DNA of 62,146 nt, filler included. It is 4 parts of 4 records of this genome, joined end to end, with 100 filler letters (N's around TTAATTAATTAA, not from the genome) between each part and the next. Parts side by side here need not be neighbours in the genome. Positions count along the whole stretch, not along the records: positions 11,717 to 26,652 come from SRR31156797_553; 3 more parts are not named here. One strand, written 5' to 3'. Below are positions 5,917 through 26,652 of the stretch, piece after piece. Below the pieces are notes generated by a model. That model was not told where the DNA came from, did not search any database, and worked only from the letters and a program-made list of their open reading frames with translations. The stretch's first letter is position 1. Each line of letters begins with the position of its first letter. A program made the translations under genes and the position numbers.

Positions 5917-8007
5917 ATGACAGAAGGTAAGTGGGACGAGAAATTCGTAGTTTTTCTCAAGAAATACTACTGGGACAGCATTCTGCAACTTGCAAATAAT
6001 TATCCTGATCAGCGAAGTCTGGAAGTGGATTTCTACGATCTTGATGTTTTTGACAACGAAATTGCCAACGAATTACTTTTTAATCCTGATGAGGTACTGC
6101 CAAGTGCTGACAATGCACTCCGACAGATCGATCTTCCAATAGAGAAGACCCTGATCGATGCAAAGGTACGCTTTATAAGGGTACCTAACAAGATTCCTAA
6201 CAGGGATCTCCGAAGTAAGCATCTTCTTCAGTTCATTGCCATTGAAGGCATGATACGTAAGGCTACAGAGGTTCGCCCCAAGGTAATTAATGCCGCATTC
6301 AAATGCATGCGTTGTGAACATGTCACAATGATTCCCCAGAACGAGGTCAAATTCGTGGAACCTGTTGAGTGTGAGAACGAGACCTGTGGCAGAAAAGGTC
6401 CTTTCAAAATAGTGGTAAATGAATCCGATTTTGTTGATGCCCAGAAACTCCAGATACAGGAATCTCCTGAGAACTTAAAAGGCGGTTCACAACCACAGAG
6501 TCTTGATGTGGATATTGAAGATGACCTTGCCGGAATTGTAAAACCCGGTGATCGTGTTATCATTAATGGGGTTCTGAGATCACACCAGAGAACTACAAGG
6601 GAAGGAAAATCCCCGTTCTATGATCTTGTTCTTCACGCAAATTCCATAGAGTACACAGATCTTGAGTTTGATGAACTTGAGATAAGTCCTGAGGAAGAGG
6701 AAGAGATCCTTGCCCTGAGCCGTGATCCTGAGGTATATAAGAAGGTCATTGGTTCTATCGCCCCTTCTATTTACGGTTATGATGAGGTGAAAGAGGCACT
6801 TTCACTTCAATTATTCTCAGGTGTTGCCAAGCACCTGCCTGATGGTTCCAGAGTAAGGGGTGACATTCACATGCTCTTTATGGGAGACCCGGGTGTTGCA
6901 AAAAGTCAGTTGCTCCGCTACATGGTAAAACTTTCACCACGTGGTGTATTCGCATCAGGTAAAAGTGCATCATCAAGTGGTCTTACTGCAGCAGCAGTAC
7001 GTGATGATCTTGGTGACGGTCGCTGGACCCTGGAAGCAGGTGCACTTGTCATGGCAGACATGGGTATAGCCGCAGTGGACGAGATGGATAAGATGAGCAC
7101 AGAGGATAAGAGTGCACTCCACGAGGCAATGGAACAGCAGACAATAAGTGTTGCGAAGGCAGGTATCCTTGCAACCCTGAAATCAAGATGTGCGCTCCTT
7201 GGTGCTGCCAATCCTAAATACGGACGTTTTGACCGGTACGAAGGTATATCCCAGCAAATAAACATGCCACCTGCGCTTATTTCAAGATTTGATATGATTT
7301 TTGTTATGCTGGATACGCCGGATGAGGATATGGACTCCAGAATAGCAAACCACATCCTAAAATCACACTATGCCGGTGAGCTCTCCGAACAACGTACCAA
7401 TGTTCCGACAAGTACCATCACCCAGGAGCAGGTGGATGACCATATGGAGGTTATAAAACCTGTAATTGAACCTGATTTCCTCAGAAAATATGTTGCTTAT
7501 TCAAGGAGGAATATTTTTCCTGTGATGGAGGAGGATGCACGTGATCATCTAGTCAAGTTCTACATGGACCTGCGAAAGATGGGAGAAGGAAAAGATGCTC
7601 CTGTGCCTGTGACTGCCCGTCAGCTCGAAGCCCTCGTAAGACTTGCCGAAGCAAGTGCACGTTTAAGACTCAGCAATGTTGCCAGCATGGAAGATGCAAA
7701 GAGAACGACACGTATAGTATACTCATGCCTCAAGCAGGTCGGTGTTGATCCTAACACAGGTGCATTCGATGTGGATGTCATAGCTTCCGGCACGAGTAAG
7801 AGCCAAAGAGACAGGATTAAGTCCATAAAAGAAATTATCAAGATGGTCGGTGAAAAACATCCCGGCGGTAAGGCTCCGTTGGAAGAAGTCTATGATGAAG
7901 CCATAAAACAGGATATAGACCGCCAGCATGCAGAGGATCTGATATCAAGGATGAGACGTTCTGGTGACCTGATAAAACCTGATAAGGAACACGTAAAGGT
8001 AGTTTGA
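5917..8007 (+). CDS. mcm: MCM replicative helicase
   Basis: Zn finger CMRC...CENETC, Walker A GDPGVAKSQ, DEMDKM, ALHEAMEQQTIS, Arg finger SRFD; no intein. Confidence 0.97.
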   Translation: MTEGKWDEKFVVFLKKYYWDSILQLANNYPDQRSLEVDFYDLDVFDNEIANELLFNPDEVLPSADNALRQIDLPIEKTLIDAKVRFIRVPNKIPNRDLRSKHLLQFIAIEGMIRKATEVRPKVINAAFKCMRCEHVTMIPQNEVKFVEPVECENETCGRKGPFKIVVNESDFVDAQKLQIQESPENLKGGSQPQSLDVDIEDDLAGIVKPGDRVIINGVLRSHQRTTREGKSPFYDLVLHANSIEYTDLEFDELEISPEEEEEILALSRDPEVYKKVIGSIAPSIYGYDEVKEALSLQLFSGVAKHLPDGSRVRGDIHMLFMGDPGVAKSQLLRYMVKLSPRGVFASGKSASSSGLTAAAVRDDLGDGRWTLEAGALVMADMGIAAVDEMDKMSTEDKSALHEAMEQQTISVAKAGILATLKSRCALLGAANPKYGRFDRYEGISQQINMPPALISRFDMIFVMLDTPDEDMDSRIANHILKSHYAGELSEQRTNVPTSTITQEQVDDHMEVIKPVIEPDFLRKYVAYSRRNIFPVMEEDARDHLVKFYMDLRKMGEGKDAPVPVTARQLEALVRLAEASARLRLSNVASMEDAKRTTRIVYSCLKQVGVDPNTGAFDVDVIASGTSKSQRDRIKSIKEIIKMVGEKHPGGKAPLEEVYDEAIKQDIDRQHAEDLISRMRRSGDLIKPDKEHVKVV

Positions 8008-11616: not shown

Positions 11617-11716
11617 NNNNNNNNNNNNNNNNNNNNNNNNNNNNNNNNNNNNNNNNNNNNTTAATTAATTAANNNNNNNNNNNNNNNNNNNNNNNNNNNN
11701 NNNNNNNNNNNNNNNN
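11617..11716. other. Artificial contig linker (44 N + TTAATTAATTAA + 44 N)
   Basis: Identical 100-nt spacer occurs three times; the 12-mer gives stops in all six frames. Confidence 0.97.
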
Positions 11717-11772
11717 GCAAAAGGGGCTTTTCTGCAAGTGGCTCTGGCTAATAACTGAGAGGAAATATTATT

Positions 11773-12258
11773 ATGAGCGCAGAAGAGATCACAGTAAAGA
11801 AATCCCATAAGATCGACCAGAAAATAAGAGATATCTGCATCAACTATATGGAGCTTATGTTGGCCTGCGGCAGGGATGAAAAAAAACGCGACAGCTTTAT
11901 CGAGGATCCACGTCCCTATTTGAACGGTATCGGTATGGTGATACCGGAAAAGGTTTCCATCCATCTTAAGGTCGGGCAGAGTTTTCCTGCTCTCCACCTC
12001 AAGACGGCGGAAGGAAAGATTGCGATCTATGAGGGCAAACTATCCCTTAAGGTTGTCGAGGAGATGAGGGACCATACGAAACATATCGAAAAGGTCGTAT
12101 TGAAAGAGCCGGGCGAAATTGATGTCAACGTCCACGCATCATTGAATGATCCCGACGTACAGGGCGTTGTTGTGATGCCGTTTTTTGATCTCTATACCGA
12201 TATTCTCGGAGAGGTTAAATTCCAGGATGGTGCGGAGATTATCCTGACAAGCTGTTAG
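11773..12258 (+). CDS. Putative RiPP precursor with nitrile-hydratase-like (NHLP / BMA_0021-type) leader and C-terminal TSC
   Basis: YMELMLACGRDEKKRDSFIEDPRPYLNGIGMVIPEKV resembles the NHLP-type 'A..DE.F...L..DP...L...G..iP' leader. Ends EIILTSC. GAGG RBS. First gene of a YcaO/rSAM operon. Confidence 0.7.
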   Translation: MSAEEITVKKSHKIDQKIRDICINYMELMLACGRDEKKRDSFIEDPRPYLNGIGMVIPEKVSIHLKVGQSFPALHLKTAEGKIAIYEGKLSLKVVEEMRDHTKHIEKVVLKEPGEIDVNVHASLNDPDVQGVVVMPFFDLYTDILGEVKFQDGAEIILTSC

Positions 12259-12262
12259 TCAT

Positions 12263-12325
12263 AAAGCCTCTAATTGGGGATCATTGAACTATCGGAACTC
12301 TCCTTTTAGAGGCTTTTTCTTTTAG
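12263..12325 (+). terminator. Stem-loop plus U-tract after the precursor gene
   Basis: AAAGCCTCTAA (12263-12273) / TTAGAGGCTTT (12306-12316) perfect 11-bp inverted repeat followed by TTCTTTT. Confidence 0.7.
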
Positions 12326-12382
12326 TTATTTTGAGGTGTAAATCCTCTCGACAGGCTGTTACGGAATAGATAAGGGCCAGAT

Positions 12383-15300
12383 ATGAATATTGCCGATTAT
12401 AAGATAATGCAAAAGCTGTATCACAATCAGAAGTATATCGTTTACCGCGCCCGGCATAAAGAGACCGCTTCGTCCCGCATCTTGAAAGTACTGGAGAAAA
12501 AATCAGCATTGCACCTTAAATACCTGCACGGCCTTCAGAACGAATATGAGCTGCTTTGCCGGGTTACCTCGGACTATGTGGTTAAACCAATTGATTTTAT
12601 TACAACCGTTGATTTCAGTATCCTTGTACTGGAAGATATCGGCGGGCACACCCTGAAGGAGGAGATTCAAAGCGACCCCCTCTCCCTTGACGGGTTCCAG
12701 ATAATTTCAGGTCAACTCATGGAGGCCGTTTCAGCCGTTCACCAGCAGGATATCATTCACCGGAATATCAATCCCGACAATATCATATGGAATCCAGTCA
12801 GTGCCAAAATCAACCTTATCGATTTTGATATCGCCACGAAGTTCAACCAGAAAATTTCATACAACGGCAATCCCGATTCCCTGGAAGGTACATTGTCCTA
12901 TATTTCGCCGGAGCAGACCGGAAGGGTAAACCGCCGTGTGGACCATCGGTCGGACCTCTATTCCCTTGGCATCACCTTTTATGAAATGTTCACCGGCGTC
13001 CCTGTTTTCGATTATGAAAATCCCCTTGAAATCGTTTATGCCCACCTGGCCCGCTCCCCCTTGCCGCCCCATGAATTAAACACAACGCTACCGAACACTC
13101 TTTCCCGCATCATACTTAAATTGATAGAAAAAAATCCAAGGAAACGCTATCAATCCGTTCAGGGCCTGCAATATGATCTTTCCAGGGCGTTCAAAAACCT
13201 CGAGGCAACGTTCACCCTCGGAGAAAAAGATTACACGGGGAAACTGCAGGTTGCGGAGACGTTGTACGGCCGGATTGATGAGCGTTCATCCCTTTTAGCA
13301 GCATACCACAAGCTTGGGCAAAAAAAGAGGGAGGTGGTTCTGGTTGCCGGTCTTCCCGGAACTGGAAAAACATCCCTTGTAAGCGAACTGCATAAACCCA
13401 TAACCCGGGATCAGGGATATTTCCTCAGCGGGAAATTTGATCAGCTGCAGCGATCGGTTCCCTACTCGGCTTTTGGCCTAGCGCTCGGCCAGTTCTGCGA
13501 TCTGCTCTTGAGCGAGCCACCGGACGTACTGGATCAATGGAAGGAGCGTATTCTAAATGCTGTGAGTCCGCTGGGAAAGCTGTTGACGGATATTTTTCCC
13601 AACCTCGTGGAGATCATCGGCATACAACCCGACATCCCTGAAATCGGCGGCGACCAGGCGATGGGACGTTTTAACCATGTGTTTTCCTCTTTTTTAAAAG
13701 CCGTTGCAACCGAAGAGAAACCTGTCGTCCTGTTTATAGACGACCTGCAATGGGCCGACCTCGAATCCCTCTCCGTGTTAAGTCTGATCAGTGAAGACAT
13801 TGAAAATCCATATCTCCTCGTTGTCGGCGCATACAGGGATAACGAAATCACCACCGACCACCCCTTCCTGCCCTTCATCCAAAGGCTTTCTGAAAACGAT
13901 GTTCAAGTCACCACCATTAATGTCGGCAATCTTACGCCAGCCGATGTTAAAGCATGGCTTGCCCATACCTTGCGGTCCGATACGGATCCTGCGGCCACCG
14001 AGGATCTGGCTGACCTCATCTTTCAAAAAACCGGGGGTAATGCGTTCTTTTTCAAACAGTTTTTGAAGAATCTCCACGCAAGGGGTCTGCTGGACTTTGA
14101 TTTCAAATATCGAAGGTGGTCATGGGATACAGCCGAGATAAAGGCTTTGAACATAACGGACAATGTTGTGAACCTGCTGGTGCAGAAAATAGAACTGCTA
14201 TCAGATGAAGTACAGGGCATTTTAAGACTGGCCGCATGTATCGGTCAGGCCTTCGAAATTTCTACCCTGTCCATTATTTCAGGTCGATCAACAGAAACCC
14301 TGACCCTGCTGCTTGAAGCCGCCTTAATTCAGGAACTGATCCAGGCGGAAGGAGAAACCCGGTACAAATTCATTCATGATCGAGTTCAACAAGCCGTTTA
14401 CACCATGATCGATCTTTCGACCCGACAGAAACTGCACCTTTCCATCGGCCGCCTGCTGTTAAATTCCATGGCACTGCCGGATCGATTCCATGAGATAAAA
14501 GAGGTCGGAAATGTTCTTTTTAAGGTCGTCAACCATCTCAATATGGGCATGGACCGGATCTGCGATAATGATGAGAAACTGATCCTTGTAAGATTGAACC
14601 TCTCTGCAGGTAAAAAGGCAAAGCGCTCTGCAGCCTTCAAGATCAGTAAAGATTATATCAGGACGGCCCTTGCGCTTCTACCTGAAAACCACTGGCAAAA
14701 TCATTATGATCTGACCCGGGAAATATATGATCAAGCCATTCAATGTTATTTCCTGTCCCGGGATACCGAGCAGCTTGAAGCCCATATAGACACGGTTTTA
14801 TCATCGACAGTTTCAGTGTCCCACCGCTGCGTTGCCCATGAATACCGCATTATGAACCTTATCGCTCAAAATCAGCATCTTTTAGCTGCGGAAAAGATCC
14901 TGGAGATATTCACATCCCTGGGCGTTTCCATTCCAACCGAACCGGAACCTTCCCATATCGGCAGGGAAATCAACAGTACGCAAACCCTGATAGAACGTTA
15001 TGGTATGGATAAAATCATAAATCTGCCGCCGATGGACGACCCGGAAACAAGGCTGATCCTACGCCTTTATTATACGGGCGCAACGGCCTTTATGTTTTCC
15101 AAGTACCAGAACATACTGCCGCTTTTGACCTCAAGGATGACGGCATTGAGCATTGAGAACGGACTCTGTCCGGAAACGCCTTATGTTCTTTGCCTTTACG
15201 GCACCGTACGAATCGTCGTGGGCGATATTTCCGGGGCGTATAAAATCGGAAATATCGCCCGTGAGCTGATCAAAAACAGGTTATGCGACGATGCCATGAG

Positions 15301-17656
15301 CGTGAGATCCATCACCCCCTTTTACCTTTATATAGCTGGAAACCGGCAGCATTACAGGGAGGTATCGCAAAGCCTGATCGACCTTCACCCCTTTGCGCTC
15401 AATGCCGGCGATTATGTTTACGGCGGCTATATCATTGCCCACTACATGGCGTTTCTGGCACGTAGCGGTACCCCACTGTCCGTCTGGCATGAAAAACTCC
15501 TCTTCATACGCCCACATCTCTCCCTTCAGAAGGAGAAAATTATGCTTGCGCTCTTTGCCTCCGATATACAACTGAATGCCGAACTGACCGGCCGGGAGCC
15601 CCCTGCGGAGATCATCGAACTGGATTTTGAAAAGATATCCAGCGGTCTGCCCCCCGATGCCTTGAGGCTATGCAGGATGTGCGAGTATCTGATGAGGGTA
15701 AAGTCGGCATTCATCTTTGAACGCAACGACCGACTATCTTCCGATGTCGCGATTTTCGAAGAAAACTGGAGCCAAATCCGGGCACGCCTGACATACGTCA
15801 CCAGCGATTACTACCTCTATTTCACCCTGGCCTATCTGCACCTGCACACCATCACAGAGGATGAAAAAGAGAAAGCATCGTTCCTTACAAAGGCTGCGGC
15901 AGGCTTGAAAGTGATGAAAAACTGGGCAAGAATCGGCTCTACCAATTTCTCCCATAAATACCATCTGCTGCAAGCTGAAATGCACCGCATACAGGGAGAT
16001 TTTTTCCAGGCAGGGGAGCATTACGACAGGGCAATCGAAAAAGCAATTGAAAACGCGTATATTAACGAAGCTGCCATTGCAAACGAACTTGCGGCCAGAT
16101 TCTACATGCAAAACGGGCGCGACAGGATCGCCTCCCTGTATTTCAGCGAGGCCAGGGCATGTTATCAGCAATGGGGAGCCGCTGCAAAGGTGTCCCACCT
16201 CGATACCAATTATCCCAAGTATACGGGCCATTTATCATATCCGGGTAAGACCGCCATGAACTCCACGACGGGAACGATGCCCCGAACGAGCGCAGACCAC
16301 CTGGATATCGCCACCATTTTAAAGGCATCCCAGACCCTTTCCAGAGAGGTACAGTTGCAGCAGCTTCTGGACAGGATGCTCAGAATCCTGATGGAAAACG
16401 CAGGGGCCCGGAAAGTTGTCCTGATTCGGAATCAGGACGGTCGTCTGCTCATCCAGGGAGAAGGGCGCCTGGAGACCGGAACTCAGCTGCTCCAGGCACT
16501 GCCCGTTGACGATTCCCGGAACATCCCCCTTGCCGTGATCCATTTCGTGGTCCGTACCCGGGAGCCCCTGGTATTTGAAGACCTCTCCCGGAGTCCCGAA
16601 TACGGTTCAGATGATTATATCATCCGGCATCAGCCGAAATCCGCCGTCTGTTTTCCCATCATCAAGCAAACGGAACTTACCGGTATGGTTTACCTTGAAA
16701 ACAACCTGATCGAAGGGGCCTTCACGCCGTCACGCCTGGAGGTTCTCAGCATGCTTTCCACCCAGATTGCCATCTCCATGGAGAATGCTGAACTCTATGA
16801 AGACCTGGAGGAAAAGGTTCGGCAGCGAACCCACGACCTTCAGAGGGTGCACGAAGAACTCGAGGAGAGCCACAGGGAACTTGCTAAAAACCACAAGAAG
16901 ATCACCGACAGCGTCACACAGGCCGTGCGCATCCAGGACGCGGCGCTGCCCGACGATGGGATCATTGCGGAGCTTCTGCCGAACCATTTTATTTTTTTCC
17001 GCCCTTGTGCAACGGTCAGTGGAGATTTCTACTGGATTCGGAAAATCGAAGACAAGATCATCACGGCGGTTGCAGACTGTACGGGACACGGCGTCCCCGG
17101 TGCCCTGGTCAGCATGCTGGGCATCGCTTTTCTCAATGATATCGTGCCAAAGATGGCAGAACAAAAAAGGCTCTTTCCCGACCAGATCCTGGGAGAGCTC
17201 AGGACAAAGGTAAAAACCGCCCTCAAGCAGCAAGGTGATCCCGCCGAGCAGCAGGAGGGAATGGATATGGGGCTTTGCACCATCGATCTCAAAGCCCGCA
17301 GGATCCGGTTCGCAGGCGCCTATCATCCCCTGTTGATAATCAGGGGCAAAAAGCTCCTCGAGTTCAAGGGAGACAGGATGCCCATTGCCGTTCACCACAG
17401 GGAGAAGCCTTTCACGGCCCATGACATTTCATTCGAAGAAGGCGATATGCTCTATCTTTTTTCAGACGGTTTCACCGATCAGATCGGCGAGAAATCCGGA
17501 AAAAAGTTCATGAAGGGACATTTTAAAAAACTGCTCCTGGATATCTGCCAGACCCCCCTGCATCAACAGAAAGAAACACTATACACCCGGTTTAAAGAGT
17601 GGAAGGGCGACTTTCCGCAGGTCGACGACATCCTGATTCTTGGAATACGGCTTTAA
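12383..17656 (+). CDS. Multidomain signalling protein: Ser/Thr (pseudo)kinase - AAA_16-type NTPase - helical repeats - GAF - coiled coil - SpoIIE/PP2C phosphatase
   Basis: GTLSYISPEQTGR and SDLYSLG kinase motifs; Walker A GLPGTGKTS; Walker B FIDDLQWAD; GAF YLENN; PP2C motifs VSGDFY, ADCTGHG, FSDG, DDIL. Confidence 0.9.
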   Translation: MNIADYKIMQKLYHNQKYIVYRARHKETASSRILKVLEKKSALHLKYLHGLQNEYELLCRVTSDYVVKPIDFITTVDFSILVLEDIGGHTLKEEIQSDPLSLDGFQIISGQLMEAVSAVHQQDIIHRNINPDNIIWNPVSAKINLIDFDIATKFNQKISYNGNPDSLEGTLSYISPEQTGRVNRRVDHRSDLYSLGITFYEMFTGVPVFDYENPLEIVYAHLARSPLPPHELNTTLPNTLSRIILKLIEKNPRKRYQSVQGLQYDLSRAFKNLEATFTLGEKDYTGKLQVAETLYGRIDERSSLLAAYHKLGQKKREVVLVAGLPGTGKTSLVSELHKPITRDQGYFLSGKFDQLQRSVPYSAFGLALGQFCDLLLSEPPDVLDQWKERILNAVSPLGKLLTDIFPNLVEIIGIQPDIPEIGGDQAMGRFNHVFSSFLKAVATEEKPVVLFIDDLQWADLESLSVLSLISEDIENPYLLVVGAYRDNEITTDHPFLPFIQRLSENDVQVTTINVGNLTPADVKAWLAHTLRSDTDPAATEDLADLIFQKTGGNAFFFKQFLKNLHARGLLDFDFKYRRWSWDTAEIKALNITDNVVNLLVQKIELLSDEVQGILRLAACIGQAFEISTLSIISGRSTETLTLLLEAALIQELIQAEGETRYKFIHDRVQQAVYTMIDLSTRQKLHLSIGRLLLNSMALPDRFHEIKEVGNVLFKVVNHLNMGMDRICDNDEKLILVRLNLSAGKKAKRSAAFKISKDYIRTALALLPENHWQNHYDLTREIYDQAIQCYFLSRDTEQLEAHIDTVLSSTVSVSHRCVAHEYRIMNLIAQNQHLLAAEKILEIFTSLGVSIPTEPEPSHIGREINSTQTLIERYGMDKIINLPPMDDPETRLILRLYYTGATAFMFSKYQNILPLLTSRMTALSIENGLCPETPYVLCLYGTVRIVVGDISGAYKIGNIARELIKNRLCDDAMSVRSITPFYLYIAGNRQHYREVSQSLIDLHPFALNAGDYVYGGYIIAHYMAFLARSGTPLSVWHEKLLFIRPHLSLQKEKIMLALFASDIQLNAELTGREPPAEIIELDFEKISSGLPPDALRLCRMCEYLMRVKSAFIFERNDRLSSDVAIFEENWSQIRARLTYVTSDYYLYFTLAYLHLHTITEDEKEKASFLTKAAAGLKVMKNWARIGSTNFSHKYHLLQAEMHRIQGDFFQAGEHYDRAIEKAIENAYINEAAIANELAARFYMQNGRDRIASLYFSEARACYQQWGAAAKVSHLDTNYPKYTGHLSYPGKTAMNSTTGTMPRTSADHLDIATILKASQTLSREVQLQQLLDRMLRILMENAGARKVVLIRNQDGRLLIQGEGRLETGTQLLQALPVDDSRNIPLAVIHFVVRTREPLVFEDLSRSPEYGSDDYIIRHQPKSAVCFPIIKQTELTGMVYLENNLIEGAFTPSRLEVLSMLSTQIAISMENAELYEDLEEKVRQRTHDLQRVHEELEESHRELAKNHKKITDSVTQAVRIQDAALPDDGIIAELLPNHFIFFRPCATVSGDFYWIRKIEDKIITAVADCTGHGVPGALVSMLGIAFLNDIVPKMAEQKRLFPDQILGELRTKVKTALKQQGDPAEQQEGMDMGLCTIDLKARRIRFAGAYHPLLIIRGKKLLEFKGDRMPIAVHHREKPFTAHDISFEEGDMLYLFSDGFTDQIGEKSGKKFMKGHFKKLLLDICQTPLHQQKETLYTRFKEWKGDFPQVDDILILGIRL

Positions 17657-17690
17657 ACGGATCGGCCGGCGTCCCAACGAGTTTCATGCC

Positions 17691-19526
17691 ATGACCCAAA
17701 ACGAAGATAAAAATATAGCCCGCAGAATCAATTCAGCCCTGTCCGGCGGTGACGTCCTCTTTATCGTTCCGCCGTTTTCGAGATCCTGTCTCGGCGCCAT
17801 GCTGGATACCCATCTCCTTGAGGCCATCTCCATCGACAGCGGGCTTGAGGCCGAAGTCCTCTATTTGAACGTTCTACTCGCCTCCATGATCGGCATCGAT
17901 CGATTCGAAAAGACCGGGAACGCACCCAGGTCCTGGATGGTAGGGGAACGGCTGTTTGCCCGGGCCGCCCATGCTCTACCGCAGCTGGGCGTTCCCCAAG
18001 AGGAACTCTCCACCCTAGGGGAAAACAAAAAGAAAAAACCTGCTCAGGCTCCCCACCCGGTAGATCCTCAATTCGATCCCTTGCCCTGGCTCGACCTGGA
18101 AGAGACCTGCTTCTCATTCGCGGACTGGGTGGCACCTGTTGTAGCGGCAAGGGGATACAAGATCATCTGGCTCAATATCGGCTGGGAACAGATCAACTGC
18201 GCCCTTGCCCTTATCGACAGGATAAAGTCAGCCGCACCCGAGACCCTTTTCATGATAGGGGGGCTGAACTGCGAAGCTGCCATGGCAAGGGGCATCGCGG
18301 CGATGAACAGTAATGTGGATTATATATTCGAAGGAGAAACAGAGGCGGCATATGCTAAGTTCCTAAAAGGATATACCCAAGGAAAGCGCCCTGACCATCG
18401 CATCCTCAGGGGAGGCCCCGTAAAGGATATGGACCTGTTACCCCTGCCCGACTATGCCGCCTATTTTCATCAGGCGGATCTTTTTCTGGAAGACAATCGC
18501 CCGGAAAAACTGGCCCTGGCCTATGAAACCAGCAGGGGATGCTGGAAAGGGCAGAAGCAACGATGCGCATTCTGCGGCCTGAATTGCGATGAACGGATCC
18601 AATACCGCTTCAAGAGCCCTGCAAAGGTCCGCTCCGAACTGGCTGTGATCAGCGAAAAATATAAAAATATTATCGTGTTCATGACGGATCACACCCCGCC
18701 CTCCTCCTACTACCGGGAACTGTTTCCCACGCTTACGCTTCCGGACGGTTTTTCCATGCGCTATCAGCTGGTGGCCGCACTGACCCTCAAGGACCTGATT
18801 AACCTTAAAAAAGCTTGTGTCAACCGCATACAGCCCGGTATCGAGGCATTGACCACCCCGCTTTTGAACGCAATCCACAAGGGGGTAAAGGCCCACCAGA
18901 ATCTGGCTCTGCTTCGAAATTCCATGTCCACGAATATCTTTGTCTACTGGTATCTACTCTGGGGACTGCCGGGAGACCGACCCGAGGAGTATGAGAAGAC
19001 CATTGAGCTCATTCCCCTGCTGCGGCATCTGCAGCCGCCCGAACTTCTGGCCCACGTACGTTTTGAAAAATTCGGGCTCTATGTGGAGCGCCCGGAGGAT
19101 TACGGAATCACGAACCTGCAACCGGAAAAGGCCTATGCAGCGATCTTTCCTGAAAATGCCGACCGGGAGCAACTGGCATTCCGTTATACCGGTGATTACC
19201 CCTGCGGTTCCCATGATCGGCCCGACATAATTCAAAGGCTTGAAGAGGAGATTCGTACCTGGAAGGATTCCTGGAGAGCGGTCAGCCTGGCCATGGTCCT
19301 GTTCTGGGATCAATATGTGATCCATGACACCCGGTTCGCCAGTAAATCCCATAAAAAATATTCCATGGACCGCGACCAGGCTCAAGAGGTGATGCGCCAT
19401 TGCCGGTATACGGGTTCCCGGCATCAGGAGTGGGCCCTGGAACATAAGCTGGCCGTTATTGCCGACGCCCATTACGTACCCTTGGTAACCGCCTCTCCCG
19501 AACTACTGCTGGAACTGGGAGCTTAG
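17691..19526 (+). CDS. RiPP-maturation B12-dependent radical SAM protein (probable C-methyltransferase, TIGR03975-like)
   Basis: ETSRGCWKGQKQRCAFCGLN (CX7CX2C at 18540-18575); N-terminal cobalamin-binding-like domain (IGGLNCE, FEGETE); IQPGIE, LHLQPP-like motif. Confidence 0.85.
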   Translation: MTQNEDKNIARRINSALSGGDVLFIVPPFSRSCLGAMLDTHLLEAISIDSGLEAEVLYLNVLLASMIGIDRFEKTGNAPRSWMVGERLFARAAHALPQLGVPQEELSTLGENKKKKPAQAPHPVDPQFDPLPWLDLEETCFSFADWVAPVVAARGYKIIWLNIGWEQINCALALIDRIKSAAPETLFMIGGLNCEAAMARGIAAMNSNVDYIFEGETEAAYAKFLKGYTQGKRPDHRILRGGPVKDMDLLPLPDYAAYFHQADLFLEDNRPEKLALAYETSRGCWKGQKQRCAFCGLNCDERIQYRFKSPAKVRSELAVISEKYKNIIVFMTDHTPPSSYYRELFPTLTLPDGFSMRYQLVAALTLKDLINLKKACVNRIQPGIEALTTPLLNAIHKGVKAHQNLALLRNSMSTNIFVYWYLLWGLPGDRPEEYEKTIELIPLLRHLQPPELLAHVRFEKFGLYVERPEDYGITNLQPEKAYAAIFPENADREQLAFRYTGDYPCGSHDRPDIIQRLEEEIRTWKDSWRAVSLAMVLFWDQYVIHDTRFASKSHKKYSMDRDQAQEVMRHCRYTGSRHQEWALEHKLAVIADAHYVPLVTASPELLLELGA

Positions 19527-19554
19527 AATAAAAAAAGGCTGCGAAAACAAGATT

Positions 19555-21816
19555 ATGATAAAGAATCCGAGACTCACATACTGTTACCATGCGGAATTTA
19601 TAGGCGACAACAATGTACTCCTGTCCAGTGAAAAGGACAATGTACTGCTGACCGAAAGGTCCTGCTGCCTTGTGCTCTCCGCCATAACCGAAAACGATCT
19701 CTCCCTCGACGACCTGCTTGCCCGTCTCGACGGTCAGATGCCCTACACGGAAACGCTGTATGCGGTGGCCAAACTTTCCCAGGGAGGTTACATCACCGAG
19801 GCTGAACCCACCCTTTCTCCCGAGGAACGGGCGTTCTGGAGTGGCCTTGGAATGGACCCAGGAAGGCTGGCGGCGTTACTTACGAACAAAACCGTATCCA
19901 TCGTTTCCACGGATACGGACAGCCCTGCCGAGCTGATCCATGCCCTTTCACAGGCCGGACTCAAGGTTCAGGAGAACGCAGATCTTACGATCGTCATTAC
20001 CGGCGACTACGAAGATCCCATGATCCGGCGGATCAATCTCGATGCCCTTAGGAGCGAGAAACCCTGGATGCTGCTCAAGACAAACGGTATCGAGCCGTGG
20101 CTGGGACCGCTCTTTATCCCGGGCAAAACAGCCTGCTGGGAGTGCCTGGCCAACCGACTGAGCTATAACCGCCAGATCAACACCTTCTTCAAGGCCCACA
20201 CCGGGACCGACCGGAACCTGCGCATCCCTTCCGCCGGAACTCCCCTGTCCCGGCAAACGGCCGCGGGCCTTGCGGTTCAGGAGATCGTCAAATGGCTCTA
20301 TTCCGGTACAAACGACCGGTTGGAAGGAACGATCATCACCCTTTCGAACATGCCCCTTGATATCCAGTCCCACCTTCTGGTCCGGCGCCCCCAGTGTCCG
20401 GCCTGCGGAAAAGAAGACTACAGGATCGCCCCAAGACCGGTTACATTAAAAAAGAACCGGGCCTGTTCCGCCAGCCTTGCAGGCGGTTACCGGGAGGCCT
20501 CCCCGGAGGCAACATTCAAGAAATACCGTCATCATATCAGCACCATCACCGGCGTCGTGCAGAAGCTCACCCCCTACCACGCCATAGCGGACGCCCCCAT
20601 CCACAACTTCTCCTCGGGTCACAACATGGCATTCAGGAGCAAATCCATGCACTGGCTCAACAACCATGTGAGGAGCGGTTGCGGCGGCAAGGGTGCCGGC
20701 AGATCCCAGGCAAAGGCCGGGGCCCTGTGTGAGGCCATAGAACGTTACAGCCTGACCTGGCACGGAGACGAACCCCGCATAAAGAGCAGCCTTACAGACC
20801 TGGGGGAAGAGGGGATACACCCCAATGAGTGCATGAACTTCAGCGAAAAGCAGTATCAGAACCGGGAGGCCCTCAATCTTGAATGCTCCAGGTTTTACGC
20901 ATTGATTCCCGTTCCCTTCGACGAAACAGAAAAGATGCACTGGACACCGGCCTGGTCCATGGGCTTTGGCGAACTCCGCTACCTGCCCTCCTGTTTCTGT
21001 TATGCCCAGTATCCGGTGGAAGATGAACAAAAGGCATACGCATATCCGGACAGCAACGGATGCGCCGCCGGAAACTCTGTTGCGGAGGCTGCCCTGCAGG
21101 GGTTTCTGGAGCTGCTGGAAAGGGACAGCGTGGCCCTGTGGTGGTACAATCGCCTGGAAAAACCTTCGGTGGACCTTACAAGCTTCAATCAACCCTATTT
21201 CCAAACACTTTCAGCATATTACAGATCCATCGAGCGCAGTCTTACGGTCCTTGACCTCACAAGCGACCTGGGCATACCCGCCTTTGGGGCGATCTCACAC
21301 CGGCTGAATAACGAACGCGAGGATATTGTCTTCGGGTTCGGCGCCCATGTGGATGCGACCATCGCAGTTGAGCGAGCCCTGGTGGAACTTAACCAAATCC
21401 TGCCCATCGTGCATCCGCCAAAGGAAAAGGGCGGTTCCGCCCAATATCTTACCGGAGATAAAAACTTTCTCTCCTGGCTCCATTCCGCCACCATGGAAAA
21501 CCAGCCCTACCTCTCGCCGGTAAGGTCGTTGCCCCCTAAAACACTTTCGGACTACAGCAAGCTCTGTGAACCCGGCGTTGAGGAGAGCCTGAACTTCTGC
21601 ATCCTTCGGGCGGCCGAAAAGGGCATGGACACCCTGATTCTCGATATGACAAGGCCGGACGTCGGCCTCAACGTGGTCAAGGTCATGGTTCCGGGGCTCC
21701 GCCATTTCTGGAAACGCCTGGCCCCAGGAAGACTCTACGATGCTCCGGTGGGCTCCGGCCTACTGAATCGCCCCCTTGAAGAGCACGAACTGAACCCGGT
21801 GGGACTGTTTATCTGA
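19555..21816 (+). CDS. Fused leader-binding/E1-like + YcaO cyclodehydratase (TruD/PatD-like heterocyclase)
   Basis: GPLFIPGKTACWECL and RPQCPACG; GKG...ALCEAIERYS; DSNGCAAGN...ELLERD; FGAH; TRPDVGLNVVKVMVPGLRHFW..GRLYD. Confidence 0.93.
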   Translation: MIKNPRLTYCYHAEFIGDNNVLLSSEKDNVLLTERSCCLVLSAITENDLSLDDLLARLDGQMPYTETLYAVAKLSQGGYITEAEPTLSPEERAFWSGLGMDPGRLAALLTNKTVSIVSTDTDSPAELIHALSQAGLKVQENADLTIVITGDYEDPMIRRINLDALRSEKPWMLLKTNGIEPWLGPLFIPGKTACWECLANRLSYNRQINTFFKAHTGTDRNLRIPSAGTPLSRQTAAGLAVQEIVKWLYSGTNDRLEGTIITLSNMPLDIQSHLLVRRPQCPACGKEDYRIAPRPVTLKKNRACSASLAGGYREASPEATFKKYRHHISTITGVVQKLTPYHAIADAPIHNFSSGHNMAFRSKSMHWLNNHVRSGCGGKGAGRSQAKAGALCEAIERYSLTWHGDEPRIKSSLTDLGEEGIHPNECMNFSEKQYQNREALNLECSRFYALIPVPFDETEKMHWTPAWSMGFGELRYLPSCFCYAQYPVEDEQKAYAYPDSNGCAAGNSVAEAALQGFLELLERDSVALWWYNRLEKPSVDLTSFNQPYFQTLSAYYRSIERSLTVLDLTSDLGIPAFGAISHRLNNEREDIVFGFGAHVDATIAVERALVELNQILPIVHPPKEKGGSAQYLTGDKNFLSWLHSATMENQPYLSPVRSLPPKTLSDYSKLCEPGVEESLNFCILRAAEKGMDTLILDMTRPDVGLNVVKVMVPGLRHFWKRLAPGRLYDAPVGSGLLNRPLEEHELNPVGLFI

Positions 21817-21929
21817 TCAGATTGTGAATAGACTCAACCTATTCGCCATCCGAAAAAAAGTCAAGAATTGAAAGAGGCGGACAAAGCACAAATAGTGCCT
21901 AAGCCGCCCCATATTCAGCCCGTTGTGGT

Positions 21930-24900
21930 TTATAACGCAACCTGGTCTTCAACCTCTTCAAACAATCTGCATAATTCCGGATCAAGGTCCCAGGTCTTTT
22001 TCAATTTATCATAAAAATCGTGGAACACCAGGGGGCCGGAACTTTTCGTGATCCACTTGCTCACAAACCGGTTAAAACGATCAAAACCAATGGTTCCGGC
22101 CAATTTGTACAGGGCCATTGTTCCTTTGTTTCCCTCCAGATAATCGATATGATCGGCAAAGATCAGCGGCGGTTCACGGATGGGCTCATTGGTCCGATCC
22201 TTGTGATAGGTCTTGCGCATCTTGACAAAAAGCGCTTCAACCTCCCGGGTGCCCACCCGGCTGTCCACAACCTGCAATGCAAGGGCGCTAGGCAGTGCCG
22301 TCCAGATCATATCCGCCCCCTGAACATCGGCAATAAAGCCGTTTGCCGAAATCCACTGCCGGATCAGATCCCGGGCCAGGACATACTGGATATAGCCCCG
22401 TATTTCGCCCACATTACAGTCTCCATACCACCCCTCTTTTTCCGAAAGGGCAATGGCTTCAGCCATGGCATAGGAATCTTTCTGGTGATATGGAATTTCA
22501 GCCACCCGGAGTTTGGTATAGGGATAGACGCCAAGCTCCTTGTCAATAAATGCAATACCCGCCCCAATGGCCTGTTGAAATTCATTTAGATTGTAGTCAT
22601 GGCCGGGATGATACAGCAGGTTGACCTCAACCCGTCCTAACAGGCTTTTGCGGCTCCGATAGCAGGCCGAACCGATATACGGATGGACCATTTTGGGGGT
22701 ATCCACCTGAAAAAAGGCATAGTTTCTGTCGCCCTCCTGCCACGTCCGGATGAGCCGGCCCGGGGCAAAGGGGTGTTGGGGCGCACTTGTGCTCACGGTC
22801 AGGTTCAACTTTTGTCCGCCGTCGGGCTGCTGCCAGGGAGAGACAAATCCCCGGCGCAACCCATGGGCATCGTCAATGGGGTCAAGACGCGAGACTAATT
22901 TGCTTAAGTGATAGCTTTCCCTGTCCCGGTTGTCCTGGAGGGTTTTATCCTGGTCAAAGCCGGTCAAGTGAAGCGCCTCGGTTAAAAACAGGCCGTTAAA
23001 GGCAAGATCTGCCTGGGGTTCTTCAGCAGTCTGGGGAAATCCCCGGTATTGACGAACTGCCTTAATAAAAAGTTTTGCCTTTTCTCCGGGTTGAATGGGT
23101 TCAGGCAGTTTGTAAACAGACATGCCAAGCTCACGATCTCTTTTGACAGGTTCCAGGGAAGCGTTTTGGATGGTCAAAAGCGAAATATTCGTGTGCGCGT
23201 CCACATTAAGGTAAAGCGTTTCACAAAATTCAGCTGAAAGGTTGGTCAGGGTCACCGTTGCAGCATACTCAGCTTTTCTCTGTTCGGGAAACAGGTCGAT
23301 TTGCACCTCATTAACCTGTCTCACCAACCGGCTGCTGCCTGCTGTCTTTGAATACTTTTTTTCATACAAGACAGATTCGGCATCTGCCTGGTCGGAAGAG
23401 ATGTAGTTTCGCAATCCATTGGATTGGGACACAATAAATCCCTGCAGCACAAAAAACACAAGCAACCCAACAAGGCCGACAGCTTTGACCCCAGGGGTCA
23501 GCTCTCCAGCCAACAGCCGCTTGAGGGTAAATACCCGCTGTCCTGTGCCGCGACGCCAGAACTGAATCCCGGCCAGAATAAACACCACGGCAAGGGCTGT
23601 CCAGGTCAGGAAAAAAAAGAACGAGGACCGATCCCAGATGCCGTAGCCCATCATTTCCGAATAATCGTCCAGTCCCGGAACCAGTGAATAGCCAAAACGC
23701 ACCTGCTCAATCAGTCCGATGTCAAAACTGATAATAATGAACAGGTAATACCCAATGGCAACCACATGGGTCAAGTAGCGGTTATTGAACAGGCCGGCCA
23801 GGAAAAAAACCAGGACAATGTTGAACATATAGGTGATCCATCCAAATTTGTAGCCGAATATATCCCCGATATAAAGTGCCAGGTCCATGTCCCAGAATCC
23901 CTGCAGCGCCTGTGCACAGACCCCGCCTGAAAAAATGGCCAGGGCAAAGACAAAGGCAACGGCGAACATAGCCAAAAGCTTTGGCACCTGTAGGACCCAG
24001 GTGGGTGAAGGCGTGGCCCCTGTAATCTGCCAGAATCCGCTGGTTCGTTCCTTGAAAAAAAGCTCTCCGGCCAGCAGCATGAGAATGATCATGAACAAAA
24101 ACCCGTTGGCCAGTCTGACATTGCACATCCCTGACGTCAGCGGCACCTGATGGCCGACGTAATAGGCGGAATTCCAGAACAGGTTCTGCATAAAAATGAT
24201 AAAGATGAGCAGGCCGAAAATAATTTTAAATGACCCCGGCCTGACCACGGAAAGAAATTCAACTTTTGCCAACCGCAGCACTTTGAACAAATTTTCTTTG
24301 CGGCCGTATTGACACAGGACGTTTGGAATCGACACGCCGTCACTGAATGAACAGGCACAGACGCCATTTTTTTTGATAATTTTTTGCCGAATGCCGCCTG
24401 CCGGAGCCCTAAGGAAATATTGAAAAGAAAATCGCTTGTAACTCAAATAAAGGCTGGCCAGACTCACCAAAACCCAAAACAGGCGATTAACCCAGAACGA
24501 GGCGGTCATTGGGAGAAACCCGCTGTTTTTCAAGGCCACCGGCAGTTCCTGGACCAGCAGCTTGCAGTAGACATAACCAAAGGGGTCCATCACCTCCAGG
24601 AAGAACCGGTAAGGCGAATTCTCGCTCATCACCTCACTGACCACAAACAGTACGGTCAATGCCACCGCCCCGATATAGGCAGCCGATATTTTTCGCACAT
24701 GGACCAGGCAGAAAAAACAGACCGCGGTTAAGACAAAAAGGTTGGGAACGCAAAAAATCAGATAGCCGTGGATCAGTTCCAGCCACTGTGTCGGGCCCAA
24801 CTGGTGGGGCTCCCCCAACCCGGAATACTTGACCAGAACCATGCCCGCAGGATAGGCCGCAACCAGGAACAGGTTGATGGAATAAGCGGTAATGAAATGG

Positions 24901-25220
24901 GTGAGAAAAAAGCGTTTTTCATCCAGGGGACATGCATACACATAATCGGCCGATCCCACGGCGATATCCCGGTACAAAGTCGTGCCGCTGATCATTGCCA
25001 CAATGGCCACAAGCAGCATCCCCCCGCCGGCCATACACTGGTAAAAAACACCTGCACCGTTGAGCAGGGCTTCATCACTGGTGTAATAGTCATAGATGCC
25101 AAGGGTATACCAGACGCCCTGTCCGGCCAGCATTAAGAGAATCAGATAGGTGAGCGGATGCCTGAACCGGTACCTTAACTCAAAAGAAAAGATGTTGGAC
25201 ATTATAAAGGAATTTTTCAT
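21930..25220 (-). CDS. ABC-2 type double permease fused to a degenerate M1 aminopeptidase domain
   Basis: Two multi-TM permease halves (FELRYRFR, GELFFKER), then an M1-like domain (YPYTKLRVAEIP, DVQGA, YLEGNKG) in which HExxH is replaced by RDLIR. Confidence 0.85.
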   Translation of the reverse strand: MKNSFIMSNIFSFELRYRFRHPLTYLILLMLAGQGVWYTLGIYDYYTSDEALLNGAGVFYQCMAGGGMLLVAIVAMISGTTLYRDIAVGSADYVYACPLDEKRFFLTHFITAYSINLFLVAAYPAGMVLVKYSGLGEPHQLGPTQWLELIHGYLIFCVPNLFVLTAVCFFCLVHVRKISAAYIGAVALTVLFVVSEVMSENSPYRFFLEVMDPFGYVYCKLLVQELPVALKNSGFLPMTASFWVNRLFWVLVSLASLYLSYKRFSFQYFLRAPAGGIRQKIIKKNGVCACSFSDGVSIPNVLCQYGRKENLFKVLRLAKVEFLSVVRPGSFKIIFGLLIFIIFMQNLFWNSAYYVGHQVPLTSGMCNVRLANGFLFMIILMLLAGELFFKERTSGFWQITGATPSPTWVLQVPKLLAMFAVAFVFALAIFSGGVCAQALQGFWDMDLALYIGDIFGYKFGWITYMFNIVLVFFLAGLFNNRYLTHVVAIGYYLFIIISFDIGLIEQVRFGYSLVPGLDDYSEMMGYGIWDRSSFFFFLTWTALAVVFILAGIQFWRRGTGQRVFTLKRLLAGELTPGVKAVGLVGLLVFFVLQGFIVSQSNGLRNYISSDQADAESVLYEKKYSKTAGSSRLVRQVNEVQIDLFPEQRKAEYAATVTLTNLSAEFCETLYLNVDAHTNISLLTIQNASLEPVKRDRELGMSVYKLPEPIQPGEKAKLFIKAVRQYRGFPQTAEEPQADLAFNGLFLTEALHLTGFDQDKTLQDNRDRESYHLSKLVSRLDPIDDAHGLRRGFVSPWQQPDGGQKLNLTVSTSAPQHPFAPGRLIRTWQEGDRNYAFFQVDTPKMVHPYIGSACYRSRKSLLGRVEVNLLYHPGHDYNLNEFQQAIGAGIAFIDKELGVYPYTKLRVAEIPYHQKDSYAMAEAIALSEKEGWYGDCNVGEIRGYIQYVLARDLIRQWISANGFIADVQGADMIWTALPSALALQVVDSRVGTREVEALFVKMRKTYHKDRTNEPIREPPLIFADHIDYLEGNKGTMALYKLAGTIGFDRFNRFVSKWITKSSGPLVFHDFYDKLKKTWDLDPELCRLFEEVEDQVAL

Positions 25221-25232
25221 AACAAGCTCCTA

Positions 25233-26126
25233 TCAATTGGCCGGGATTGTTTTCAGGGTATGAAAATAAGTATCCGCCAAACTGGGCGGCTTAGGGACAA
25301 AACCGTTACCGGGGTCTGCCTTGGAACAGATGGTAAGATTGAGAGTACCCAGGTGAAAGTGGCTGGAAAGCACATCGTTGCGCTCACGATACCCCACCAG
25401 TTCATCTTTTTGAATTGCTTTGGTCCACAAAAGACCGTTAAGGCTTTGTTCAAGCTCCCCGGGGGTGCCCACACGAAGAACCCTGCCCTGCCCCAGGATG
25501 GCCATGTGGTTGCAAAGAGTGCTCACGTCCTCCACAATATGGGTGGACAGGATCACCACCGTGTGTTCCCCGATTTCCGACAGCAGGTTGTAAAAGCGGT
25601 TGCGCTCAACCGGGTCCAGGCCGGCAGTGGGTTCATCAACAATAATCAACTTTGGGTTGCCCAAAAGGGCCTGGGCAATGCCGAACCGCTGTTTCATGCC
25701 TCCGGAAAACCCGCCGATCTTTCTTTTGCGTTGATCCCAAAGGTTCACCTTTTGCAGCAGTGCACCCACCTGATCTTTTCGTTCGCCAACATTTACAATC
25801 CCTTTTAAATCCGCAATATGGGAAAGCAGTTCTTCAGCGCTCACCGAAGGGTAGACCCCAAACTCCTGGGGCAGGTACCCCAGTTGTCTTCGAAGCTTTT
25901 CCGGGGCGGAAAGTACATCAATATCATTGAAACGAACCGTTCCGGAATCTGCATCCTGCAAGGTAGCCAAGATGCGCATCAAGGTGGATTTGCCGGCCCC
26001 GTTTTCACCGAGCAGGCCGAACATACCGGTCCCGATGGTAAGGGAGACGTCCTTTAACGCTGCGACTTCGCCTGCATAGGTCTTGTTTAAATTTGTTATT
26101 TCAAGCTGCATATGATGATTCTCCAT
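25233..26126 (-). CDS. ABC transporter ATP-binding protein
   Basis: GENGAGKST, FSGGMKQR, IVDEPTAGLD, STH. Confidence 0.95.
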   Translation of the reverse strand: MENHHMQLEITNLNKTYAGEVAALKDVSLTIGTGMFGLLGENGAGKSTLMRILATLQDADSGTVRFNDIDVLSAPEKLRRQLGYLPQEFGVYPSVSAEELLSHIADLKGIVNVGERKDQVGALLQKVNLWDQRKRKIGGFSGGMKQRFGIAQALLGNPKLIIVDEPTAGLDPVERNRFYNLLSEIGEHTVVILSTHIVEDVSTLCNHMAILGQGRVLRVGTPGELEQSLNGLLWTKAIQKDELVGYRERNDVLSSHFHLGTLNLTICSKADPGNGFVPKPPSLADTYFHTLKTIPAN

Positions 26127-26183
26127 TCTTTAAATTGGTAATAGCGCCACTATAAAAAACGGCATAATGACAAATATTTGACA

Positions 26184-26225
26184 AAAAAACTGTCTTTTTA
26201 CGAACAAAGACTGTCTTTGGATGAA
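26184..26225 (-). promoter_or_regulatory. 21-bp-period direct repeat upstream of the ABC operon (LytTR-type site candidate)
   Basis: ACTGTCTTT at 26189-26197 and 26210-26218; flanks are also similar (..TACGAA / ..GATGAA). Confidence 0.45.
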
Positions 26226-26652
26226 TTTAATTTAGACATGAAAGACATTGATTGATACGAGTTACAGAAAAAAATACGCCCGATTAAAAGAGTCACAAAT
26301 TGATAGCGTCCCTCCCAAGGCAGGACCAAACCTATAAGAAACAAAAACAAATAGGATACCGTTTTAGTCATTTAGAAGGACTATAAAAAATGAAACTATT
26401 CGTTTTAAACACCAAGAGGGCCAGCCCCAATTTTGAAATGATCCCCCCACAATACTCTTGTTTTTAAATTCTATTTTGAAATAAGCTTGGGCGAGAATGA
26501 ATACCATAAGTATATCGTTTTGATTGACTATATTTTATTAGGCAACTTGTTTTTTAAAGCTGGATTGTGTACCGTTAATATCATTCGATTACAGGGCAAG
26601 GAATCAATTCTCCCGGTCTATTAAGCTTGATTTAGGAAAATGATATGAGACG

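Follow-up and report, generated by a model that had tools for sequence, protein, structure and literature searches.

A window of 62,146 nucleotides (the whole stretch of DNA that was analysed, filler included) carries on one of its contigs four co-oriented plus-strand genes, for a 161-aa NHLP-like precursor protein, a 1757-aa sensor-phosphatase, a radical S-adenosylmethionine (rSAM) enzyme and a fused YcaO heterocyclase. We place these four genes in a ~14.8-kb accessory island of Desulfobacter, of which they make up the right half and whose left half encodes homologs of the Sia partner switch. The best explanation that we can offer for the whole, put forward tentatively, is that a protein modified by enzymes of the kind that mature peptides made on ribosomes and modified post-translationally (RiPPs) is the input of the large sensor, which would act through a Sia-type switch on cyclic diguanylate (c-di-GMP).

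The heterocyclase would convert the C-terminal Cys, and perhaps Ser/Thr, of the folded precursor into one or more azolines, the rSAM enzyme would add one or more C-methyl groups to the precursor tail, and the product, either the modified protein or a very small C-terminal product, would be kept inside the cell, where the large protein, through its STAND/GAF sensor part, would read it as input. A SiaB-like kinase would phosphorylate a SiaC-like protein, the PP2C domain of the large protein would dephosphorylate it, and the state of the SiaC-like protein would set hybrid kinase/REC-GGDEF activity and hence the c-di-GMP level. The parts of this scheme differ in strength: the predicted identities of the enzymes are well supported; the precursor is probably the substrate of both YcaO and rSAM; the PP2C domain likely acts on the SiaC-like protein, a Sia-type output being suggested by homology and by the context of one island; and the modified protein or its product is a candidate only, and a doubtful one, for the ligand of the sensor.

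The four-gene block and the island around it

The features of the block, with one from the left half of the island as found in D. vibrioformis, are as follows.

11773-12258, plus strand: precursor, 161 aa, NHLP clan, ending ...KFQDGAEIILTSC
12263-12323, plus strand: terminator-like hairpin and U-run between the precursor gene and the large gene, within the 124-nt gap
12383-17656, plus strand: large protein, 1757 aa, kinase-like/STAND NTPase/TPR/GAF/SiaA-type PP2C
17691-19526, plus strand: TIGR03975-family rSAM enzyme, 611 aa from ATG; alternative TTG start at 17640
19555-21816, plus strand: fused heterocyclase with winged-helix RRE, E1-like and YcaO domains
11748-21819, plus strand: stretch homologous to the right half of the island (blastn, 94.4-95.0% DNA identity to genomes G417, G419 and D. 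vibrioformis, G001)
L001 (D. vibrioformis locus) 5512-6096, plus strand: SiaB-like kinase, 89-90 bits on NF038264 (cut-off 225)

Open reading frame (ORF) calls, Pfam and NCBIfam agree with an earlier note on this DNA as to the four co-oriented genes and their domains. The gaps between the genes are 124, 34 and 28 nt if the rSAM gene starts at ATG 17691, which is probably correct since the D. vibrioformis gene has the same start, and all four proteins are 93-94% identical to their counterparts in D. vibrioformis DSM 8776. The hairpin in the first gap (dG -27.8 kcal/mol, z -3.6, with none of 200 shuffles equally stable) is conserved in D. vibrioformis, where two arm changes retain pairing as G-U, and is possibly an attenuator; a simple terminator scan did not list it, probably owing to its long loop. 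D. vibrioformis also has, between the precursor stop codon and the hairpin (L001 10487-10520), a degenerate repeat of the precursor gene's final ~19 nt that is absent from the window.

The precursor is present in three of 25 Desulfobacter genomes (G001, G417 and G419), which have in common a block of ~14.8 kb that is 95-97% identical (L001 5371-20131); outside it the flanks of the three genomes are mutually unrelated. Border alignments place the right border 3 nt past the YcaO stop codon. We regard the grouping of the four genes as more than chance, given the 28-124 nt gaps, the sharply bordered block in three genomes and the recurrence of the grouping on a metagenome contig (L091) described below. 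The earlier note had remarked on the lack of a dehydrogenase and a leader protease, and this holds for the island in three complete genomes, inside which no protease, transporter or dehydrogenase gene is recognisable. Rfam searches gave no riboswitch on the window contig and none in the left half of the island, where the one match was at chance level (E 0.42).

The island encodes, in order, the SiaB-like kinase, a SiaC-like phosphoprotein, a hybrid histidine kinase (HisKA-HATPase-REC-Hpt), a REC-GGDEF cyclase, the precursor, the large protein, the rSAM enzyme and the YcaO heterocyclase, so that PP2C phosphatase, SiaB-like, SiaC-like and GGDEF genes all lie in the island of G001, G417 and G419. 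In each of these genomes the SiaB-like protein is the single match to its model; a minus-strand ORF of 260 aa at the left end of the island was dropped as a gene in favor of the plus-strand SiaB-like ORF. The SiaC-like/DUF1987 protein scores 127.7 bits on PF09345 (cut-off 24.5), where it is the sole match in G001, and 86.6 bits on the NCBIfam SiaC model (cut-off 150); it matches P. aeruginosa SiaC structures at E 7e-15 and has a Ser aligned to the phospho-Thr68 of that protein. The REC-GGDEF cyclase scores 159 bits on the SiaD model, under the cut-off of 290. A partner-switching output of RsbU/SpoIIE type had been proposed for the large protein: the context favors a partner switch, with SiaB-, SiaC- and SiaD-like genes just upstream in the relatives and a PP2C domain that is the best SiaA match of each genome, and it points to a Sia type instead. 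The length of the cyclase varies among the three genomes: the D. vibrioformis protein (L001 8672-9721) has 349 aa and no tautomerase domain, that of G417 (L063 13680-14909) has an extra C-terminal tautomerase domain by Pfam, and the G419 copy (L065 13672-14901), at 409 aa, is of the same length as that of G417.

None of the SiaB-, SiaC- or SiaD-like genes is on the window's own contig, and we consider it very probable that the window organism has the whole island. In assemblies of run X1, a possible source of the window DNA, a 4749-bp contig covers the left half (L001 5375-9913) at a depth of 20.4 and a 14,938-bp cluster contig that begins at L001 9995 has a depth of 19.7; the assembly of run X7 bridges the GGDEF gene to the precursor; and the first 30 nt of the window contig resemble a diverged copy of the same GGDEF-precursor spacer. 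The assemblies of X1, X2 and X4 and the window contig all break within this spacer (L001 9906-9997), which suggests that it is variable or structure-prone. The equal depth in X1 and the diverged spacer also led us to drop the idea, raised by homology that starts 23 nt before the precursor ATG, that the four genes are a cassette separable from the SiaC module.

The precursor, its putative modifying enzymes and the sensor-phosphatase

We assign the precursor to an uncurated family of the NHLP clan that no NCBIfam model covers. On the NHLP leader model TIGR03793 it scores 19.2 bits against a cut-off of 50.9 (E 8.4e-4, over residues 28-65 only), and similarly weak matches were seen for seven of seven close relatives and 28 of 64 family members. 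The earlier note had drawn a parallel with BMA_0021-type (TIGR03795) precursors, and membership in that family did not hold up: none of the seven relatives matches that model (cut-off 41 bits) at E<=10 and none of the 64 members at E<=0.01, and an hhalign comparison of the family with four true TIGR03795 members gave E 0.054 over motif 1 only. A word-based search found six relatives; when 1.84 billion representatives were scanned in full with a hidden Markov model (HMM), 73 clusters matched at E<=1e-3, and 37 did so at E<=1e-10. Nearly all of the family members looked up are metagenome sequences, with several of the clusters on contigs of 19-302 kb, and among 401 genomes sampled from the phylum the one with a member is G001 itself. 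A search of the PDB with the precursor A1 profile found nothing under E 0.1, a metagenome scan with the A1 patterns found nothing, and a protein atlas search gave scores of 0.82-0.83 only, below the useful range. The precursor is a single gene here; clusters P0087 and P0091 both list longest contigs of 238,476 bp and 4,110 bp, and since they share these contigs other lineages may carry two paralogous precursors per locus, as NHLP-Burk systems do.

The precursor ends in Cys, and no Gly-Gly motif was found in its sequence. Of 74 family sequences examined, a crude motif filter kept 69, among which 46 have a terminal Cys, 17 end in Cys-Cys and 58 have a Cys within the last four residues; of the five sequences filtered out, two likewise terminate in ...TC or ...PC, and among the 11 members that lack the terminal Cys at least three look truncated. 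Most members have the ending (S/T)(S/T/C)C, within a consensus tail LPFFD...D.L...KF.D..EI.L(S/T)xC, and the C-terminal ~30 residues, conserved throughout the family, form strands in the model. An AlphaFold2 model built from a 64-sequence alignment (pLDDT 95.2, pTM 0.85, last block 62) has three N-terminal helices followed by a beta-rich domain up to residue 158, and replaces an earlier run on a shallow alignment of seven sequences (pLDDT 55). As modelled, the precursor is a confident globular fold in which the C-terminal 'core' is part of the folded domain, so that only the last ~3 residues (T-S-C) would protrude. Its N-terminal helices resemble those of the proteusin precursor 8TB1 (Foldseek probability 0.90 over 49 columns, root-mean-square deviation 3.2), and the whole model has no Foldseek match in the PDB at E<=0.001. 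A folded precursor agrees with recent work in which NHLP leaders are structured (PMC12537861, PMC12455567).

Both putative modifying enzymes are of the kinds that the earlier note had named, a methylating-type rSAM enzyme and a YcaO heterocyclase. The rSAM enzyme clears the TIGR03975 ('RiPP maturation radical SAM C-methyltransferase') cut-off of 281.85 with 391.8 bits and has the cluster motif CX7CX2C at residues 301-312, as in other members; it is only 24-31% identical to 13 sampled TIGR03975 members and has no PDB relative at E<=0.001 (P0003). We class it as a divergent TIGR03975 member, for which methyl transfer is predicted. The YcaO protein is above the cut-offs of both TIGR03882 (140.8 bits, cut-off 36.9) and TIGR03604 (257.5 bits, cut-off 219.25) and matches LynD (4V1T, E 3.1e-179, residues 10-749), TruD and MusD over its full length, which identifies it as a LynD-type fused heterocyclase with a leader-binding domain. 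Relatives of the YcaO protein occur in eight of 401 sampled Desulfobacterales genomes. In the same order TIGR03975 is usually represented by one member of ~620 aa per genome (loci L079-L090), and its name 'RiPP maturation' may be unfit for most of its members, given its presence in 154 of 401 genomes against eight of 401 for YcaO and one of 401, in a separate phylum sample, for the precursor.

The recognised parts of the large protein, all on the plus strand, are as follows.

12440-13171, plus strand: protein-kinase-like domain, residues 20-263, with no Gly-rich loop, HRN at 126-128 and DFD for DFG
12764-12766, plus strand: codon 128 of the large gene, Asn in the window copy alone
13262-13825, plus strand: AAA_16 NTPase domain, residues 294-481, with Walker A GLPGTGKT at 323-330 and Walker B hhhhDD within 448-459
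16355-16777, plus strand: GAF domain, residues 1325-1465 (Pfam)
17051-17650, plus strand: PP2C/SpoIIE phosphatase domain, residues 1557-1756, with acidic motifs SGDFY, DCTGHG, SDG and DDI

Together with one weak TPR match by Pfam, these parts lead us to describe the large protein as one in which the P-loop NTPase and the SiaA-like PP2C domain are intact, a GAF domain is present and the kinase domain is atypical: the Walker A, Walker B and acidic metal-binding PP2C motifs are intact, and the window copy lacks the Gly-rich loop, the HRD Asp and the DFG of active eukaryote-like Ser/Thr kinases. The Gly-rich loop is missing throughout the kinase-STAND family, and in the RiPP-linked clade DFG is replaced by DFD, or by DFN in L091. 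The PP2C domain matches the SiaA model NF038263 at E 6.4e-60 and 203.4 bits over profile positions 383-657, which are its PP2C part (the cut-off for whole SiaA proteins is 700 bits), and matches the SiaA PP2C domain structure 6K4E at E 1.1e-44. In each of G001, G417 and G419 the large protein is the best SiaA match (204-210 bits), with a runner-up at 77-81 bits in G001 and G419 and none at threshold in G417. The earlier note had likened the protein to the TIGR03903 fusion with a PP2C output in place of the cyclase; the substitution stands, Pfam finding no cyclase domain in the protein, and membership in TIGR03903 does not, the score being 134.1 bits, confined to the kinase and NTPase parts, where the cut-off is 705.75. 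A complex prediction for residues 690-1480 (TPR and GAF) with the precursor gave 0.00 against a mark of 0.34, the fold of the partner being uncertain, and weighs neither for nor against contact.

Recurrence, related systems and rival explanations

The same families recur on metagenome contig L091 (10.9 kb) in the order rSAM, rSAM, YcaO, precursor, large protein, with identities to the window proteins of 41% and 41% (rSAM), 55% (YcaO), 26% (precursor, E 1.4e-9) and 51% (large protein, residues 1-466, the gene running off the contig end). The precursor directly precedes the large gene here too, despite the other gene order. The L091 large protein, at 51%, compares with at most 41% for 29 other relatives of the window copy, and its rSAM enzymes, at 41%, with the 24-31% of the sampled TIGR03975 members. 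A search for the same architecture in other genomes, as the earlier note had advised, has found the large signalling gene kept in three Desulfobacter genomes and on L091. Genes for a FixC/ETF-QO-like flavoprotein and a ferredoxin precede the rSAM genes of L091 (378-2002) and could supply electrons to these enzymes.

The analogy that the earlier note drew with the TIGR03795/TIGR03882/TIGR03903 system is borne out. In Haft, Basu and Mitchell 2010 (PMC2887384), NHLP-Burk precursors have no Gly-Gly site, end in Cys or Cys-Cys and adjoin a fused cyclodehydratase and a large Ser/Thr kinase, no transporter being known, and these NHLP-Burk/TOMM system kinase/cyclase clusters (TIGR03795 with TIGR03882 and TIGR03903) are described there by bioinformatics only. 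The classic arrangement is present in two of the eight YcaO-bearing Desulfobacterales genomes: in G283 (L015 8879-20000) a TIGR03903 protein of 1269 bits is accompanied by two TIGR03795 proteins (91.9 and 123.7 bits, one of them ending TCC), then a fused YcaO, and G326 (L018), judged by similarity, is laid out in the same way. The Desulfobacterales NHLP-Burk system comes after a sigma-54 activator and a hybrid histidine kinase and is likewise among signalling genes. Both systems have a long nitrile-hydratase-like precursor that lacks Gly-Gly and ends in Cys, a fused E1-like/YcaO cyclodehydratase, no linked transporter, and a very large protein that has a Ser/Thr-kinase domain at its N-terminus along with an AAA_16/TPR NTPase and that carries or feeds a nucleotide second-messenger output. 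The island differs in its precursor, which is outside TIGR03795, is encoded by one gene rather than a tandem pair, and has ~160 aa and an added beta domain; in the GAF and PP2C domains of the large protein, where NHLP-Burk has a cyclase domain; in its additional rSAM enzyme; and in being embedded among SiaB, SiaC, histidine kinase and GGDEF genes. We classify it as a variant of the NHLP-Burk/TOMM-kinase kind, with what appear to be a new precursor family and a new Sia-type output. A literature search, outside which lay most subscription journals and supplements, returned, among the papers listed, no functional study of the NHLP-Burk/TOMM-kinase system and no description of a YcaO/NHLP/kinase-STAND system of this kind, and no paper joining RiPP or YcaO with PP2C and a diguanylate cyclase.

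The SiaABCD partner switch is known from Pseudomonas aeruginosa (PMC7647112; see also PMC8457831). The island shares with it a SiaA-like PP2C, a SiaB-like kinase and a GGDEF cyclase in one gene block and a SiaC/DUF1987 protein whose phospho-site is occupied by a hydroxyl residue. Its SiaA version is the C-terminus of a 1757-aa kinase-like/STAND/GAF protein, however, there is an inserted hybrid histidine kinase, a REC domain is part of the cyclase and RiPP-type genes are interleaved. The heterocyclase has the leader-binding, E1-like and YcaO domains of LynD, TruD and MusD over its full length, whereas its putative substrate is a folded 161-aa protein with targets in the last three residues, and PatA/PatG-type proteases are missing from the island. 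With proteusin/NHLP precursors (TIGR03793, 8TB1) the island precursor shares an N-terminal helical part and a recognisable motif 1, but it is below the cut-off, has no Gly-Gly and has an extra beta-rich domain without a PDB match and a conserved C-terminus. Large sensors that combine kinase, AAA_16, TPR and GAF parts include PknK of M. tuberculosis and the cyanobacterial HstK-type proteins; the large protein has their order of kinase, STAND NTPase, helical repeats, GAF and output, and differs from them in a SiaA-type PP2C output, an altered DFG and in belonging to the only clade found beside RiPP genes.

Several observations weigh against the proposal that tail modification is sensed by the large protein and passed to a Sia switch. 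The matches to SiaA, SiaB, SiaC (NCBIfam) and SiaD are all under curated cut-offs, the window itself shows no join between the contig and the left half of the island, L091 ends before Sia genes could appear, and the Sia link is seen in a single island lineage of 95-97% identical copies and so counts as one observation. In the window copy Asn128 stands at the catalytic-loop Asp, which is Asp in all three orthologues (G417, G419 and D. vibrioformis). Relatives of the NTPase-GAF-PP2C region occur in 154 of 401 Desulfobacterales genomes, and within 1.5-kb flanks none of 29 other large-protein loci has a gene for the precursor, rSAM, YcaO or SiaC. Most relatives of the large protein have no nearby RiPP genes, and sensors of this family therefore normally read other signals; within this common family the RiPP link was found in one clade only, as a recruitment peculiar to it. 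TIGR03975 members above the cut-off likewise occur in 154 of 401 Desulfobacterales genomes, so that the family name alone proves neither a RiPP role nor methylation.

It is possible, although in our view doubtful, that the genes form a conventional RiPP cluster with a resident regulator, in which the precursor is cleaved, a small azoline- or methyl-bearing peptide or small molecule is released or exported by unlinked proteins, and the large protein and Sia module control production or respond to export, the signal flowing from sensor to biosynthesis. The nearest relatives of the YcaO protein are cyanobactin heterocyclases, which make released peptides, the rSAM enzyme belongs to a family named for RiPP maturation, and a hairpin 3' of the precursor gene is a common means of setting the precursor:enzyme ratio. 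A released product would nonetheless have to be made from a precursor that has no Gly-Gly site and whose 'core' is conserved family-wide and modelled in a confident fold, unlike the hypervariable cores of antibiotics, in an island with no recognisable protease, transporter or dehydrogenase in three complete genomes. The ABC exporter pair next door in the window would suit this explanation, but it is host backbone, with 85-87% identical orthologues elsewhere that lack the block, and there is no DNA-binding domain among the recognised domains of the large protein.

An improbable explanation gives the large protein a part in maturation, as an enzyme that phosphorylates Ser/Thr of the tail as LanL/LanKC kinases do or as a scaffold that holds the precursor for YcaO and rSAM, with the PP2C domain reversing or proofreading the phosphorylation. 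The retention of precursor-then-large-gene adjacency in two lineages, the Ser/Thr-rich tail and the kinase that accompanies NHLP-Burk precursors as well would fit such a role. The kinase domain gives generic matches to the kinase domains of class III and IV lanthionine synthetases (E 7e-13 and 4e-22), but these are no better than its matches to PknB-type kinases and no lyase domain is present; the family has no Gly-rich loop, DFG is DFD or DFN in the RiPP-linked clade, the catalytic Asp is Asn in the window copy and H-R-D is N-K-D in L091; and the PP2C domain is specifically SiaA-like, with SiaB and SiaC in the island. That a signalling gene merely sits between unrelated RiPP genes is very improbable. 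Both the large-protein family and TIGR03975 are very common, each in 154 of 401 genomes of the order, which makes random adjacency possible; yet the genes are closely spaced, the island is sharply bounded in three different genomic settings, L091 has the same four families at 26-55% identity in rearranged order, and NHLP-Burk has an analogous association.

Most studies of RiPP enzymes treat them as producers of secreted antibiotics or toxins, and here, as in NHLP-Burk, a heterocyclase stands beside a giant sensor, and genes for export or cleavage are not recognisable. If modification of the tail does feed a STAND/PP2C switch by which c-di-GMP is set, bacteria would have a new way to write and read an internal signal, a gene association unexplained since 2010 would gain a function, and RiPP chemistry would have a place in signal transduction rather than in the making of secreted antibiotics. 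Extending this to the whole NHLP-like protein family of at least 73 clusters, in which the last two or three residues, modified by YcaO and rSAM, would be an intracellular signal or cofactor for kinase-like STAND NTPases with second-messenger outputs (c-di-GMP via the Sia switch here, a cyclase domain in NHLP-Burk), is speculative and on present evidence unlikely. The question is directly testable since the cultured strain D. vibrioformis DSM 8776 carries the whole island.

Origin of the cluster contig and neighbouring genes

The window consists of four contigs with N44-TTAATTAATTAA-N44 linkers between them. Its remaining features are as follows.

11617-11716, 26653-26752 and 56744-56843: linkers, N44-TTAATTAATTAA-N44
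11717-26652: cluster contig, 14,936 bp, GC 50.8% (from N-runs and GC)
5917-8007: archaeal-type ORF, MCM (E 4.9e-236)
2802-4070: archaeal-type ORF, TfrB-like
44783-46354: archaeal-type ORF, archaeal TrpE over cut-off
21930-25220, minus strand: ABC-2-type permease, 1096 aa, with a long C-terminal domain that has no Pfam match
25233-26126, minus strand: ABC ATPase, adjoining the permease

We attribute the cluster contig to Desulfobacter on the strength of its 94% DNA identity to three Desulfobacter genomes and the 85-87% identical ABC permease orthologues in the genus. The other three contigs have a GC content of 42-44%, against 50.8% for the cluster contig, and two of them yielded archaeal-type proteins when sampled (MCM and TfrB in contig 1, archaeal TrpE in contig 3), on which account the Desulfobacter contig probably contaminates an archaeal assembly or was mis-binned into it; 19 kb of one other contig had no nucleotide match to D. 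vibrioformis. Flanks beyond 11717-26652 are uninformative on the cluster. Orthologues of the ABC permease at 85-87% identity are present in four of 25 Desulfobacter genomes and the island is not beside them; as host backbone unlinked to the block elsewhere, the permease/ATPase pair (21930-26126) was ruled out as its exporter. In G407 (L059) the ABC permease adjoins a 30%-identical paralogue of the large sensor protein.

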